Shown: positions 2,337 to 40,813 of the stretch, piece by piece
Position numbering within the stretch: position 1 is the stretch's first letter
Layout: each line of letters opens with the position of its first letter
Source of the DNA: a virus
Lineage: Duplodnaviria; Heunggongvirae; Uroviricota; Caudoviricetes
Strand: one strand, 5' to 3'
Virus record (IMG/VR): IMGVR_UViG_2529292726_000019
Length of the DNA: 46,731 nt
The notes under the pieces: generated by a model
The model's database searches: none
What the model was told of the DNA's origin: nothing
The model's input: the letters and a program-made list of their open reading frames with translations, nothing else
Program-made: the position numbers and the translations under genes

Positions 2337-2927
2337 CTATTTATTATAAACAAAACCAATATCTTTCTTGTGAGGCATATCTGCTGCTGAAAAAGCTGCG
2401 ATCTTCGCGAGTCGATCACATATTTCATTTTCACGATGCCCGGCGTGACCTTTAACCCACTTCCAGCGAACATTATGTCGACTTGCGGCCTCATCCAGAC
2501 GCTTCCACAGATCAACATTCTTTACCGGTTTTTTGTCAGAAGTCATCCATCCATTGCGTTTCCACCATTTCATCCACTGTGTCATGCCGTTTTTCAGATA
2601 CTGGCTATCAGAGTGCAAAATAACGTTGCATGGATATTTCAAACGCTCCAGCCCGATAAGTGCCCCCATCATCTCCATGCGGTTATTGGTGGTGCTATGA
2701 AAACCATCTGAGAACTCGCGTTCCTCACCACGATACTGGAGAACGATACCGTAACCGCCCGGGCCACCCGGATTTTTAAGGCAAGAGCCATCACTAAAGA
2801 TTTTCACGGTTTTAAGCTGGGGATTGAACTCTACGACAGGCGTTGTGGGATTGGTGCGGGGGGAATTTTTGTTTTTGGCTTTTTTGCGAGTTTTTGCTTG
2901 CGATCGGGCTGGTGTCTTCGTCGTCAT
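2337..2927 (-). CDS. rnhA: ribonuclease HI
   Basis: Motifs VKIFSDGSC...GGYG and ...HSDSQY...[20 protein letters not shown] match the RNase H catalytic core. Start chosen at MTTKTP (ATG 2927-2925) with an AGGAG Shine-Dalgarno; it carries a basic N-terminal extension of about 40 aa. Confidence 0.85.
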
Positions 2928-3509
2928 ATAAACTCCTGAATCAAGCGCCGCGCCGATTTTTCCTCGCGCGTGCGCACACGCGTGCGTGTTAATAATTATT
3001 AAAATAAACAAATTACTTCCCAGAACAGGTTTTTATAAACCTGAACTGAACGAACGAAGTGAGTGAAGTTCACCTCGAACGAAGTGAGAGGTTGTCTTTT
3101 CAGGTAATACTCTCCCAGGGAGGTGAGTATAAAAATCTCTCACCAACCTGGTCGTTTCATAACCTGAAAAGTTATGGTCTAAGTCTACTGCCAGCTTAGA
3201 CTTGGGAAGTTATGGATGACAGCACCCCAGAACCGAGATCTTCCCACACTTTATGAAGGGGAGTACTGGATTCAACCTCTCGAAACACCCCAGACTCGAC
3301 AATCATAAAGTGACCCTTGTCTCTGCTCACTTTGGTTCCCCCTTCCCCGACACCTAAACGGCACCAGTTCTACGCTGGTAGTGAGCTTTTTTAAACCTGA
3401 CGCCAGTGACGCTTACCCCCACCCATCAGGTCGAGTCTCCAGTCTACGACTGGAAACTATCAGATCTTAGCACTTACAATTCACTTTATGAATAGTTTGT
3501 ACTTATCTA

Positions 3510-3764
3510 TCATTGTGATTGATTATTTTCTCTACCATGTAGTTGAACATTCAAGGCAAACACCTCATTGATCAACTCACCTAAAAGCTGTTCAACAAGT
3601 TCGCGATGCTCGCCAAGATGCAAGCACTTAATTGCCCATTCGTACAAGTTGAAAGCCTGCTCACGATCTTTCATCATTTCACGAGCCTGGGCCAGAAAAT
3701 CGCTCTCTACGAGCGCAACGACATTAGTCGGGTATGACATGTTGGTTTCCTTAAAGTGGTTCAT
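3510..3764 (-). CDS. hypothetical protein (84 aa)
   Basis: ORF with a start-region-like sequence upstream. Confidence 0.45.
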   Translation of the reverse strand: MNHFKETNMSYPTNVVALVESDFLAQAREMMKDREQAFNLYEWAIKCLHLGEHRELVEQLLGELINEVFALNVQLHGRENNQSQ

Positions 3765-3925
3765 AAAATCGATTTTAAAGCGTCTGGGAAGGGGCTCTAG
3801 TGGATTCTGTAGTGATGTTCAGGTCTGGAGTCTCTGATACAAAACAGCCTTCTTCCGTATATTAATAATTAATATGTAGTTATTTATATATACAGAAGCA
3901 GGCTAATTACAGACACCAGAACAAA

Positions 3926-4519
3926 CTAAGCAGCCTTCTTTGATGGTCTTTTTTTCCTGATCACATTCGCAGGATCATACCCTCCCAGACTTTTCATGAC
4001 GTCCAAAGGGATCTTGCTTATAGAGTGCCCAGCGTCCTGACAGAATCCTCGAAAAACAACGAGCATACTGCCACCTGGGTTGATGTTTACTTCTACCTGA
4101 CCCAGATTTACGTCAGGCTCGACAAACGCTACGCGGCCACCAGACAGAATAATCGTCTCATTCGCACACTCTGTTGCACGCTCATACCACTTTGTATCTA
4201 GGGATTGAGGAATTAGCATCACTGTTGTAACTCCACGAGCCTGCTCACGTATAGCCGCATCAATCCAGGGGGAGATTTTGGAGTAGGGTGGATTGAGGAA
4301 GGCAATTGTACCTGGCTGTCCCCATTCAGATTTCAAAGCATCACGCTCAACGCCTATGAAATTAGGCAGCTTTGCATTGTCCTTGTTGCAGGCAACGTCA
4401 ACATCAAATGTCACTCCAAGATAACGTTGAATGGCAGAAAACAGCCAGTCAGGTGTTCTCCAGAGGTCACGAAGAGAGTTGTCGCGCTTTCGCTGTTTGA
4501 TTTTTTCGGCTGCAATCAT
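3926..4519 (-). CDS. DNA N6-adenine methyltransferase (phage Dam-like)
   Basis: N-terminal WRTPDWLF and catalytic NPPYS motif typical of phage Dam-like N6A methyltransferases. GATC specificity is not provable from sequence. Confidence 0.8.
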   Translation of the reverse strand: MIAAEKIKQRKRDNSLRDLWRTPDWLFSAIQRYLGVTFDVDVACNKDNAKLPNFIGVERDALKSEWGQPGTIAFLNPPYSKISPWIDAAIREQARGVTTVMLIPQSLDTKWYERATECANETIILSGGRVAFVEPDVNLGQVEVNINPGGSMLVVFRGFCQDAGHSISKIPLDVMKSLGGYDPANVIRKKRPSKKAA

Positions 4520-38561: not shown

Positions 38562-39116
38562 ATGCACTTGCATAAGTTGGTTACACCTGGTTTGGCTTCA
38601 TTGCCGGGTGATCTGTCATATTTAGATATAGACTTTGTTTTCTCTGGCAATGAAGCTCGTAAGGCTAGATACCGTTTAGTCTTTTGCCCTCCTTCTTTAG
38701 ATCCTGTTGCCGCAGAAACTATGCATAATATGTTAGGGGCTGATGTTTATGGGTTGTGTGTATCTGTCGTTAGTTTTGTGGACATGATTCAACTTGACAG
38801 GCAGCAAGAACAGCTCCAGAATGTCGCTCTTGGAGCGGAAGAGCCAATTAACGTATTTGCCAAACCCGAAGGGTCTTTTAATCTTACTTTAGGTGAACTT
38901 CAATACCTTTACGGTACTTTAGTTGACTTAATGCTCAAAGTTGCCGACAATGAAGGCATACAGATTTTATTCTTTGCGGCAGAACGCGAAGAACTGATGG
39001 CCACATACAAGAGATATGTGAAGAGATTTACACAAGAGCGTGGCCTAACTTATTTAAATGACGGAGCTTCCTATGCGATACGAACACAACACTACCCAAA
39101 ACAAAGGGAAGATTGA
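38562..39116 (+). CDS. hypothetical protein (184 aa)
   Basis: Plus-strand ORF followed by a terminator. Confidence 0.45.
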   Translation: MHLHKLVTPGLASLPGDLSYLDIDFVFSGNEARKARYRLVFCPPSLDPVAAETMHNMLGADVYGLCVSVVSFVDMIQLDRQQEQLQNVALGAEEPINVFAKPEGSFNLTLGELQYLYGTLVDLMLKVADNEGIQILFFAAEREELMATYKRYVKRFTQERGLTYLNDGASYAIRTQHYPKQRED

Positions 39117-39240
39117 TTTTAAAACTATCCATGCTAGCAAAGTCGAAATGATCAAACGATTCATGACTGCTAAAGCTGAAGCTGAACGCAAGGGTGAAGT
39201 GGTCTTTAAGCCACTGTAGTGGTTAGCTAGAAGTTATGAA

Positions 39241-39260
39241 AAAGGCCCATATGGGCCTTT
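39241..39260. terminator. bidirectional rho-independent terminator aaaggcccat-atgggccttt
   Basis: Perfect palindrome with A-run before and T-run after, between convergent genes. Confidence 0.5.
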
Positions 39261-39300
39261 TTTGTTATATGTACTATATGTACAAAGATGTGGCTTTTAC

Positions 39301-40115: not shown

Positions 40116-40202
40116 TGGCGGAGAGTAATGGAATCGAACCATCATCGCTTGCGCAATGGGACGGTTTTCAAGACCGCTTGAGCACCATGCTCCCTACTCT
40201 CC
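40116..40202 (-). tRNA. tRNA-Ser (anticodon TGA), class II with long variable arm
   Basis: Acceptor GGAGAGT/ACTCTCC, anticodon loop CTTGAAA, T-loop TTCGATT, encoded CCA. Confidence 0.7.
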
Positions 40203-40346
40203 GGCCGTTGTGGTGGCCGGGACTGAATCTCCGGCATACGGTGCAGCCAATTAGGACTACGGACGATCACCGCTCGCGAAAGGGAAGATTTGCGGCCGCA
40301 TTTCCCTAACATCCAAGAAAGCTATCGCATCAGTCTGCGAATCCAC

Positions 40347-40425
40347 CACAACGGTAAGATCACTACCTTTCGACCAGTCATTGTGCACATGAACGACGAT
40401 TAACCGTAATGATCTTATCGTTGTG
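40347..40425 (-). ncRNA. structured hairpin element 1 (stem cacaacggtaagatca / tgatcttatcgttgtg)
   Basis: About 79-nt imperfect hairpin; paralogous to element 2 and sharing the 3' flank gttgtgttg. Confidence 0.3.
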
Positions 40426-40476
40426 TTGTGAAGCCAGATGCTTATCTTCTGGTTGCCTCAAAGAGCTGCACTTCCT

Positions 40477-40565
40477 CACAACGGTAAGAGCACTGGTCTG
40501 ACTCTATCGATTTACGGGCTTGTGGGTCAGTATCGCCGATTCGCCCAATGCACTTACCTGTTGTG
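40477..40565 (-). ncRNA. structured hairpin element 2 (stem cacaacggtaag / cttacctgttgtg) abutting the 3' end of tRNA-Thr
   Basis: About 89-nt imperfect hairpin; does not fold as a tRNA by eye. Confidence 0.3.
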
Positions 40566-40566
40566 T

Positions 40567-40643
40567 TGGTGCCGGTTAACGGACTCGAACCGCTGACATC
40601 CTGCTTACAAGGCAGGCGCTCTACCAACTGAGCTAAACCGGCA
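40567..40643 (-). tRNA. tRNA-Thr (anticodon TGT)
   Basis: Reverse complement TGCCGGTTTAGCTCAGTTGGTAGAGCGCCTGCCTTGTAAGCAGGATGTCAGCGGTTCGAGTCCGTTAACCGGCACCA folds as a cloverleaf. Confidence 0.8.
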
Positions 40644-40646
40644 ATT

Positions 40647-40733
40647 TGGTGGGGAGTGATGGAGTCGAACCACCCGAGTCGCCATGACAGTAGATTTACA
40701 GTCTACCCCGCTGCCCCTACGGACTAACTCCCC
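40647..40733 (-). tRNA. tRNA-Tyr (anticodon GTA), long variable arm
   Basis: Acceptor GGGGAGT/ACTCCCC, anticodon stem-loop GTAGA-CTGTAAA-TCTAC, T-loop TTCGACT, CCA encoded. Confidence 0.8.
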
Positions 40734-40738
40734 TAAAT

Positions 40739-40813
40739 TGGCGATGGTGGGTGGATTCGAACCACCGACCAGTTGGTTAACAGCCAACTGCTCTACCGCT
40801 GAGCTACACCATC
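40739..40813 (-). tRNA. tRNA-Asn (anticodon GTT)
   Basis: Reverse complement GATGGTGTAGCTCAGCGGTAGAGCAGTTGGCTGTTAACCAACTGGTCGGTGGTTCGAATCCACCCACCATCGCCA. Confidence 0.8.

Follow-up and report, generated by a model that had tools for sequence, protein, structure and literature searches.

A region of some 580 nucleotides (nt) in a stretch of viral DNA of 46,731 nt (IMG/VR record IMGVR_UViG_2529292726_000019, here called the window) lies between the RNase HI gene rnhA and a gene for a protein of 76 amino acids (the 76-aa gene), and very probably carries a gene for a structured non-coding RNA (ncRNA) on the minus strand. It had been singled out in a sequence-only reading as lacking a long open reading frame (ORF) at 2928-3509, and indeed no frame between the rnhA start and the end of the 76-aa gene contains an ORF of more than 46 codons. 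Of the explanations offered at that stage, a structured ncRNA is now backed by conservation, covariation, a conserved promoter and published RNA sequencing (RNA-seq). The structured region is real, although its extent needs redrawing: the functional unit runs over ~3003/3013-3492 on the minus strand, and 2928-3000, occupied by an AT-rich spacer and a GC-rich block, falls outside the conserved folded core. In its fuller form, which we favor with modest confidence, the reading is of a stand-alone gene for a structured, prophage-expressed ncRNA of ~445-455 nt that acts via its fold, in a protein complex or as a decoy.

Over the 1.1 kb around the locus, identity was 98-99% to the Escherichia phages CMS-2020a, PhiR41_1 and Cyrano (Cyrano and the window are ~97-98% identical) and ~81-83% to Salmonella phage SSU5 and Klebsiella phage-plasmids; the window is therefore part of a phage-plasmid of the SSU5/pHCM2/Cyrano type. 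The core of the element (~3013-3458) is 88-92% identical in SSU5 and the Klebsiella elements, as against 81-83% for the 1.1-kb stretch with its flanking genes. A sensitive BLAST of 2929-3509 places the element in 687 PLSDB plasmids, from Klebsiella, Escherichia, Enterobacter, Salmonella, Citrobacter and Cronobacter, and matches 12 phage records as well. Among 5,426 complete E. coli genomes, 232 (~4%) carry it, on plasmids of ~105-160 kb except for two chromosomal copies, and the RefSeq annotation is blank there. Divergence then deepens through L187 (82% identity), L183 (73%) and a Cronobacter-type clade (loci L003, L010, L023, L082, L189, L190, L195, L196, L200 and L202; ~56-69%) to L185, which has zero blastn similarity and is recognized as homologous via motifs, nhmmer (E = 3e-17) and a covariance model. 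Searches for further members comprised exact-pattern scans over viral, genome and metagenome collections, a protein-anchored scan, and a comparison of the 76-aa protein with 5.8 billion proteins; the true matches are all SSU5-like elements of Enterobacteriaceae, and the non-enterobacterial pattern matches (L088-L103 except L089, L094 and L100) have only a 20-nt seed in common. No paralogue was found within the window by nhmmer or by the covariance model R1 described below, and the E. coli genomes hold no paralogue or complementary stretch beyond the element itself at E <= 0.01. One record, L191 (Logan SRR8137545), was left out of all counts: it is the same locus with nearly every C read as T, as would be seen with a library of bisulfite type.

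One argument for an RNA comes from the fold. For the minus strand the z score of the minimum free energy is -5.66, for the plus strand -5.00, with 0 of 100 dinucleotide shuffles as good on either, and RNAalifold returns covarying helices on both strands, as is expected because the pairs are Watson-Crick. About eleven helices and two long-range loop-to-strand pairings are backed by covariation across five clades. A model checked by hand, with nine nested helices (P2-P8) plus both pseudoknots, was scored on an alignment of 15 sequences in the RNA sense (A5): 96.0% of 1,316 cells pair, against 36-49% when the partners are slid, and compensatory changes are found at 29 of 89 pairs, compared with 3-4 after sliding. 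None of 500 shuffles attains these values. The covariance model R1, which covers the central domain P5-P8 (3112-3248) and was built from 14 sequences without L185, detects L185 at 59.4 bits (E = 3e-13); in its alignment, which is fitted to the model and so favors pairing counts, pairing holds in 99.6% of cells, and compensatory changes affect 24 of the 36 pairs, compared with 0-5 in slid controls. Compensatory change in relatives, a check that the sequence-only reading had proposed, thus stands well above controls.

The same pattern is seen helix by helix. In P2, 7 of 13 pairs are compensatory and 100% of cells pair, with six consecutive pairs changed on both sides in L185; the figures are 4 of 7 pairs for P3, inside which L185 has a 60-nt insertion, and 6 of 12 for P5 and P5a, where 98.7-100% of cells pair. 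Throughout L185, P1, P2, P4a, P5a, P6, P7, P8 and P10 are complementary with a different sequence, and P4 retains 6 of 7 checked pairs. The short hairpins named from the sequence alone were all recovered among these helices: ccagtc..gactgg as part of the 11-bp hairpin P1 (3434-3458), aagtcta..tagactt within 3177-3201 (P6) and ggtgag..ctcacc within 3115-3151 (P8). A direct repeat noted at the same time is also present, but it is 13 nt long, CGAACGAAGTGAG, at 3051-3063 and 3076-3088, rather than 12 bp at about 3046 and 3080; read on the other strand it is the UCACUUCGUUC repeated in the loops of P9 and P10.

Of the two pseudoknots, PK1 pairs 3086-3094 (CAACCUCUC) with the P4a loop at 3273-3281 (GAGAGGUUG). 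Its pairing is compensated G-C to U-A in L187 and, by eye, U-A to G-C in L183, a sequence placed out of register in A5; in L185 the pairing is replaced by another one of 12 bp, GAGUU.GGGUUUU with AAAACCCAACUC. PK2 pairs 3097-3103 with the P7 loop at 3164-3170, changing from A-U to U-A in the Cronobacter clade and to G-U in L183; a 3-bp junction helix, 3315-3317 with 3102-3104, was dropped in favor of this 7-8-bp pairing. The RNA may have alternative conformations, because a nested 13-bp helix, 3159-3171 with 3096-3108, is as conserved as the P7 hairpin plus PK2, with which it is mutually exclusive, and because PK1 has a competitor in P9, a hairpin that L185 does not retain.

The RNA is assigned to the minus strand, that of the flanking genes, by wobble asymmetry, the conserved promoter and the published Cyrano RNA-seq. 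In the full model, 26 sites with G-U-type variants at mostly Watson-Crick pairs are consistent with the minus strand, against 10 with the plus strand (p = 0.011). Where the predictions for the two strands share a pair (46 pairs), single substitutions that leave a G-U agree with the minus strand at 7 sites (14 cells) and with the plus strand at 1. In the central domain the one-sided changes are nearly all minus-strand G-U, with only 2 unpaired cells. Energies point the same way, at -93.9 for the minus strand against -61.5 for the plus strand by alifold, and -166.8 against -140.1 for the minimum free energy. A plus-strand RNA, which was an early reading based on a few G-U hairpins, was rejected on the G-U counts, the promoter and the energies, although the hairpin at 3365-3380, described below, is an exception.

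A conserved promoter is found on the minus strand only. Its -10 bases G, T, T, A, A and T are invariant in the 21 sequences of alignment A2, and the extended -10 is kept in L183, L187, L188, L189 and L190, and with altered spacing in L185, each clade having an equivalent element; L005 and L006 have TAGAAT without the TGn spacing, and the -10 element scores below the 9-of-12 threshold of a simple promoter scan. Transcription is predicted to start at A3458/G3457, with the first base of hairpin P1. Towards the 3' side, the last conserved motif is UCUGGGAAGUAA at 3024-3013, followed by a U/A-rich stretch. Within 2928-3000 only CGCGCGAGG (2962-2970) is conserved in most clades, as CGCGCGAG in L190 and L010; CGCGCGAG(G) is the sole part of the GC-rich block common across clades, whatever the downstream gene, and the surrounding palindrome is not kept. 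The block at 2962-2989 is not recognizable as an intrinsic terminator or as a promoter. Positions of these features are collected in Table 1.

Table 1. Predicted parts of the RNA element, its promoter and the neighboring genes (window positions unless a locus is named; partners of a helix are joined by "with")
Feature	Position	Strand	Remarks
ncRNA	3003-3458	-	predicted 5' end A3458/G3457; from conservation, covariation, fold z, Cyrano RNA-seq
-35 hexamer TTCATA	3487-3492	-	family consensus ~TTyAmm; position conserved in all clades of alignment A4
Extended -10 TGcTAAGAT	3464-3472	-	17-nt spacer to -35; TGnTAnnAT/TAAACT in most relatives
P1, 11-bp hairpin	3434-3458	-	at predicted +1; sequence varies by lineage, hairpin kept; GUCUGG/CCAGAC in L185
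P2, 13-bp helix with internal bulge	3394-3432	-	invariant GGGUGGnGG and CUGGC motifs
P3	3325-3386 (3380-3386 with 3325-3331)	-	encloses variable sub-domain with G-rich GGGGAAGGGGGAAC
P4 and P4a	3247-3312 (P4 3303-3312 with 3247-3256; P4a 3289-3297 with 3261-3270)	-	P4a loop 3273-3281 in PK1
P5 (UGGGAAG/CUUCCCA) and inner hairpin P5a	3203-3246 (P5a 3214-3227)	-	
P6, P7, P8	3115-3201 (P6 3177-3201; P7 3158-3176; P8 3115-3151)	-	compensatory at 8/9, 3/6 and 7/9 pairs
Single-stranded "staple"	3086-3104	-	3097-3103 with P7 loop (PK2); 3086-3094 with P4a loop (PK1)
P9, P10, P11 (3' hairpins)	3026-3091 (P9 3073-3091; P10 3042-3072; P11 3026-3043)	-	
GC-rich block ending in CGCGCGAGG, then A-run	2962-2989	-	between RNA and downstream gene
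rnhA (RNase HI, PF00075)	2337-2927	-	downstream of element; start ATG 2927-2925; variable cassette
76-aa gene (PHROG 5343, function unknown)	3510-3740	-	upstream of element; stop 3512-3510
Dam-type methyltransferase gene	3926-4519	-	
Tad2-like genes	L003 2458-2769; L183 3598-3912; L189 3431-3742; L190 4110-4421		

Transcription of the element can be followed in Cyrano, whose record OV696614 annotates a 44-codon ORF, CYRAN_81, within it. RNA-seq of E. coli LF82, the carrier of Cyrano, was re-analysed in PMC9928086, with 10 samples from LB, two in-vitro time points and macrophages at 1 h and 6 h (S1 Table). On the scale log2(fpkm+5), fpkm being fragments per kilobase per million, CYRAN_81 stands at 6.8, 6.9, 9.3, 9.0, 6.9, 6.9, 9.0, 8.2, 10.35 and 10.3 (PMC9928086, Table 1 and S1 Table), and its neighbors at 3.1-5.8 (upstream CYRAN_80) and 2.6-5.0 (rnhA, CYRAN_82) (PMC9928086). 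In lysogens CYRAN_81 is thus 10-40x both neighbors, in gene counts that may not be strand-specific; strand-resolved profiles appear elsewhere in the same paper. Its profile across conditions parallels those of the integrase (CYRAN_44) and the putative repressor (CYRAN_45). RNA-seq coverage, another check suggested from the sequence alone, accordingly shows a transcript above both neighbors, and the region yields a discrete transcript in the prophage/plasmid state that ends before the next gene.

That the product is the 44-aa protein of CYRAN_81, an ORF annotated in OV696614 and counted in PMC9928086 among the expressed "morons" (extra prophage genes), is hardly credible. Of 15 representatives, 8 have the frame interrupted by 1-2-nt indels, by stops or by both, and another four have no start codon for it. 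Variable columns fall on the three codon positions 102/90/92 times (p = 0.65), so that no periodicity is seen, as against 28/10/18 (p = 0.013) in the neighboring ORF, and the internal gaps in the element are mostly of 1 nt. The sequence-only reading had named two outcomes that would speak against it; what was found is that relatives encode no conserved small protein here, there being no conserved frame and no codon periodicity, and that the region is both conserved and transcribed. Judged from these comparisons, selection is on base pairing and a few unpaired G-rich motifs, not on a reading frame. Three features general to ncRNA genes are seen at the locus, with compensatory pairs above controls, a promoter of its own with a discrete transcript, and no conserved frame.

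In the mechanism that we propose, the RNA would be transcribed from the sigma-70 promoter (-35 at 3492-3487, extended -10 at 3472-3464) with a start at ~3458, at P1, and would fold into about eleven helices round a multi-helix core, the 3' strand 3104-3086 joining two distant hairpin loops as pseudoknots. It would be made constitutively in the plasmid-prophage state, be terminated before the next gene, and act through its fold, as the RNA part of, or a decoy for, a phage or host protein complex in lysogeny. Simple antisense pairing seems less likely than action via the fold, because most of the length consists of conserved helices and tertiary pairings, no target complementarity is seen, and the unpaired motifs resemble contact sites. 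Given a structured ncRNA gene on the minus strand, a mechanism in trans is a tentative proposal, to which we give somewhat less than an even chance.

Several observations weigh against a stand-alone minus-strand RNA. Its 5' and 3' ends, and with them the size of ~450 nt, are predictions from sequence, and no canonical intrinsic terminator was found at the predicted 3' side. That the Cyrano gene counts may not be strand-specific belongs here too, as does the hairpin at 3365-3380 (CCAGUUCUACGCUGG), in which G-U pairing in all variants works only on the plus strand (CCGG/CUGG, CUGG/CUGG). Covariation comes mostly from a few deep splits (the main clade, L187, L183, the Cronobacter clade and L185), so that independent events are fewer than the cell counts. 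The family appears narrow, confined to SSU5-like phage-plasmids of Enterobacteriaceae. Finally, the mutually exclusive conserved pairings would also fit a switching cis-regulatory leader.

Such a leader, or attenuator, of the downstream variable cassette (rnhA, the Tad2-like gene or others) is the most serious competitor, though we consider it unlikely. Constitutive transcription would stop at the end of the leader in lysogens, and a switch in the fold, triggered by a ligand, a protein, an antiterminator or an incoming upstream polymerase, would allow read-through. The element is upstream of the cassette genes and in the same orientation, no convincing promoter lies between it and the next gene, and the conserved CGCGCGAGG block stands just ahead of the cassette; moreover, two exclusive conserved pairings at P7 and the competition of P9 with PK1 supply candidate alternative states. 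An abundant leader with a silent downstream gene is known from riboswitches in the off state and from the immunity leader of phage P4, and by analogy the abundance of this RNA while the downstream gene is silent in lysogens could be that of a terminated leader. However, the downstream genes vary by lineage and share no function, which makes metabolite sensing unlikely, no terminator/anti-terminator pair is recognizable, and 450 nt with two pseudoknots is far beyond known attenuators in size. Downstream expression is at background in 10 of 10 published samples.

A different role for the transcript would be as a primer or R-loop RNA of a replication origin, in the manner of ColE1 RNA II, the T4 origins or the primer RNA of the mitochondrial light-strand promoter. 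A G-rich transcript would stay on its C-rich template, be processed by RNase H, and prime DNA synthesis in the adjacent AT-rich stretch. The ColE1 RNA II pre-primer is 555 nt long and works with RNA I, Rop and host RNase H. The likeness extends to a constitutive promoter, a folded plasmid transcript in the 450-550-nt range (~450 against 555 nt), invariant G-rich tracts on the RNA strand (GGGUGGnGG and GGGGAAGGGGG), an AT-rich spacer followed by a GC-rich block just downstream on the 3' side, and an RNase H gene directly downstream in many lineages, with two such genes in L192 after a different structured spacer. Unlike ColE1, the locus has no RNA I promoter (no promoter-like plus-strand site at ~3310-3360 opposite the 5' part, the sole such site within the element, 3451-3480, pointing away from it), its 76-aa neighbor is not Rop-like, and RNase H is dispensable, since several clades keep the RNA without it here (L003, L005, L183 and L189). 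An IncFIB RepA replicon is already present by PLSDB typing, apparently ~17-20 kb off, judged from record coordinates, and the RNA is made in lysogens, not specifically upon induction. The 2900-3600 interval contains no DnaA box with up to 1 mismatch, and there is no GC-skew change at the locus, the skew being negative across 1-12 kb, although DnaA boxes and skew are a weak test for a phage genome. We regard a primer as improbable.

One further point raised for a primer is a 24-nt identical hairpin in the unrelated phage contig L025, in what resembles a lambda-type origin within a replication-initiator gene; it could be a chance match, and ~0.05-0.1 such matches are expected. At 6291-6330 of L025 (also in L052; 55% GC), the 24-nt ACAACCTCTCACTACGTTCGAGG equals window 3072-3095 on the minus strand and forms a perfect 8-bp hairpin with an 11-nt loop identical to that of P9. 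It lies inside a 442-aa initiator gene (PHROG 16167, 2149, 1408). CAGTGAG repeats and an AT-rich stretch immediately precede the hairpin, and the GC palindrome CGTGCGCGCACG follows 4 nt after it. The match may be chance or a shared replication-linked hairpin.

It is very improbable that the conserved entity is a site in the DNA, such as an iteron array or lytic origin, a packaging site or an operator cluster, with the RNA signal incidental. The 13-bp direct repeat is real, as is the GC-rich palindrome of the sequence-only reading, located at 2965-2982, and GTGAG/CTCAC is enriched, occurring 6 times where the window averages 0.77 per 450 nt. However, the two 13-mer copies of the main clade are not conserved as iterons across divergent members: the Cronobacter clade has one copy and L185 a different sequence, and L185 has 0 copies of GTGAG. 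Nor would DNA-binding sites predict compensatory pairs and strand-specific tolerance of G-U. The lytic origin among the early explanations hence finds no support, with no GC-skew switch, no DnaA box, and repeats that are not conserved in divergent members.

Returning to a structured ncRNA, we compared it with known classes. The Rfam scan suggested in the sequence-only reading, run on the window and on divergent members, matched no family: with Rfam 15 at the gathering threshold, the only matches in the whole window are three tRNAs near 40.6 kb, a search of 2700-3950 at E <= 10 returns nothing but implausible miRNA/viral matches far below threshold, and L185, L183, L003 and L192 at E <= 1 give nothing relevant; no tRNA or tmRNA lies in the element region. 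GOLLD, ROOL, OLE and raiA are large structured bacterial or phage ncRNAs, GOLLD and ROOL being carried by phages and prophages. The present RNA is like them in its hundreds of nt, many covarying helices, pseudoknots, conserved unpaired motifs and non-coding character, and unlike them in having no Rfam match, in a very narrow and different host range, in being expressed in lysogeny and in not lying beside tRNA genes. The 6S RNA, Ms1 and CsrB-type RNAs are abundant, stable and structured and bind a protein; the likeness here is of a structured, abundant RNA for which protein binding is proposed, but there is no 6S rod with a central bubble, no array of GGA loops and no Rfam match. The c4, CI and CA immunity RNAs are 70-90 nt long, processed by RNase P, and antisense to nearby boxes. 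The element recalls them in being constitutive in the prophage/plasmid state inside a silent lytic operon, and its two-loop repeat recalls target and seed boxes; unlike them, it is ~450 nt long, no complementary box was found in the 46.7-kb window, and the Rfam C4 model does not match. Sites for the loop complement GAACGAAGTGA with at most 1 mismatch comprise those in the element plus two others in the window. The total of 4 does not exceed chance, 1.3 being expected and 5 of 100 shuffles having at least as many. These RNA immunity factors of P1/P7 (c4), P4 (CI) and N15 (CA) are cited in PMC3632133 (refs 111-112).

No described family or mechanism fits, and in that sense the RNA would be of a new class, "new" meaning the lack of a match and not a demonstrated mechanism. 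That it represents a large pseudoknotted class of ribozyme or RNA-protein-particle grade, specific to SSU5-type elements and with an active role in the phage-plasmid lifestyle, is a proposal that we place only just short of even. Bacterial RNAs this large and complex are rare, and those that are understood are ribozymes, guide RNAs or RNA-protein machines. If the proposal is true, the role could be, for example, silencing of the lytic replication and anti-defence module, control of copy number or induction, or neutralization of a host or rival-phage factor. Phage-plasmids of the SSU5/pHCM2 type are often found in clinical E. coli, Klebsiella, Salmonella Typhi, Enterobacter and Cronobacter and can carry resistance genes, and annotation pipelines miss the element or call a spurious ORF in it. 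With tractable hosts, a clean promoter and a signal in public RNA-seq that includes bacteria in macrophages, its function is directly testable. The element is, moreover, a conserved landmark beside a variable cassette that includes a Tad2-like gene, and may help to find anti-defence genes.

The genes surrounding the element, rnhA, the 76-aa gene and the Dam-type methyltransferase gene, are all on the minus strand. The 76-aa gene sits upstream in every locus with flanks examined. Its product has a three-helix AlphaFold model (pLDDT 83), no Pfam domain, no significant structural match in the PDB (best Foldseek E = 3.9) and nothing significant among PDB sequences, the best being a de novo designed protein at E = 0.058; identification as Rop-like or as a known RNA binder was rejected, and Rop is not among the 17 Foldseek hits listed. 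On the other side, the early description of the region as upstream of RNase H is true by position but implies no tie, as other genes are downstream in the Cronobacter-type clade, L183, L189 and L190. The gene rnhA is swapped for others in L003, L005, L183, L189 and L190 while the element and the 76-aa gene stay, and rnhA is therefore part of the variable cassette, not of the element. A Tad2-like gene (PF11195, anti-Thoeris) is at or near the downstream position in L003, L183, L189 and L190, preceded in L190 by a 196-aa gene without a Pfam domain, and L005 has two hypothetical genes instead of rnhA. This slot just downstream of the RNA, which varies between lineages, may be an accessory or anti-defence hot spot.

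Straight after the stop of the 76-aa gene, a short AT-rich palindromic hairpin at 3490-3509 shares positions with the -35 of the RNA promoter; most relatives have it in perfect form (for example GGTAAGTACTTACC in L002) and the window in a degenerate one, and it may be the terminator of the upstream operon. L089, a Buttiauxella gaviniae contig, matches only the equivalent of 3005-3321 and continues in unrelated sequence (from column ~340 of alignment A1), as a truncated or rearranged copy without the promoter-proximal third. The sister lineage L192 also carries the 76-aa gene (~70% identity), along with two RNase H genes; the 712-nt spacer between these genes, 2726-3437, shows no similarity to the element by blastn, nhmmer or R1 and has no PLSDB match, but its first 475 nt have a fold z of -4.66. 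The spacer may represent a second structured RNA, not homologous to the first, at this position.

Elsewhere in the window, a 184-aa ORF without a Pfam domain (38562-39116, plus strand) seems by length and position to be the counterpart of CYRAN_43, which adjoins the integrase in Cyrano and is the highest-expressed Cyrano gene in LF82 lysogens, at 723x prophage background (PMC9928086). A tRNA cluster lies at 40116-40813 on the minus strand, with Ser, Thr, Tyr and Asn tRNAs by ARAGORN, three of them above the Rfam gathering threshold. In Cyrano the "moron" CYRAN_40 (39021-39268; 15x background) overlaps tRNA genes on the opposite strand, and because of this overlap its apparent expression is probably tRNA signal.

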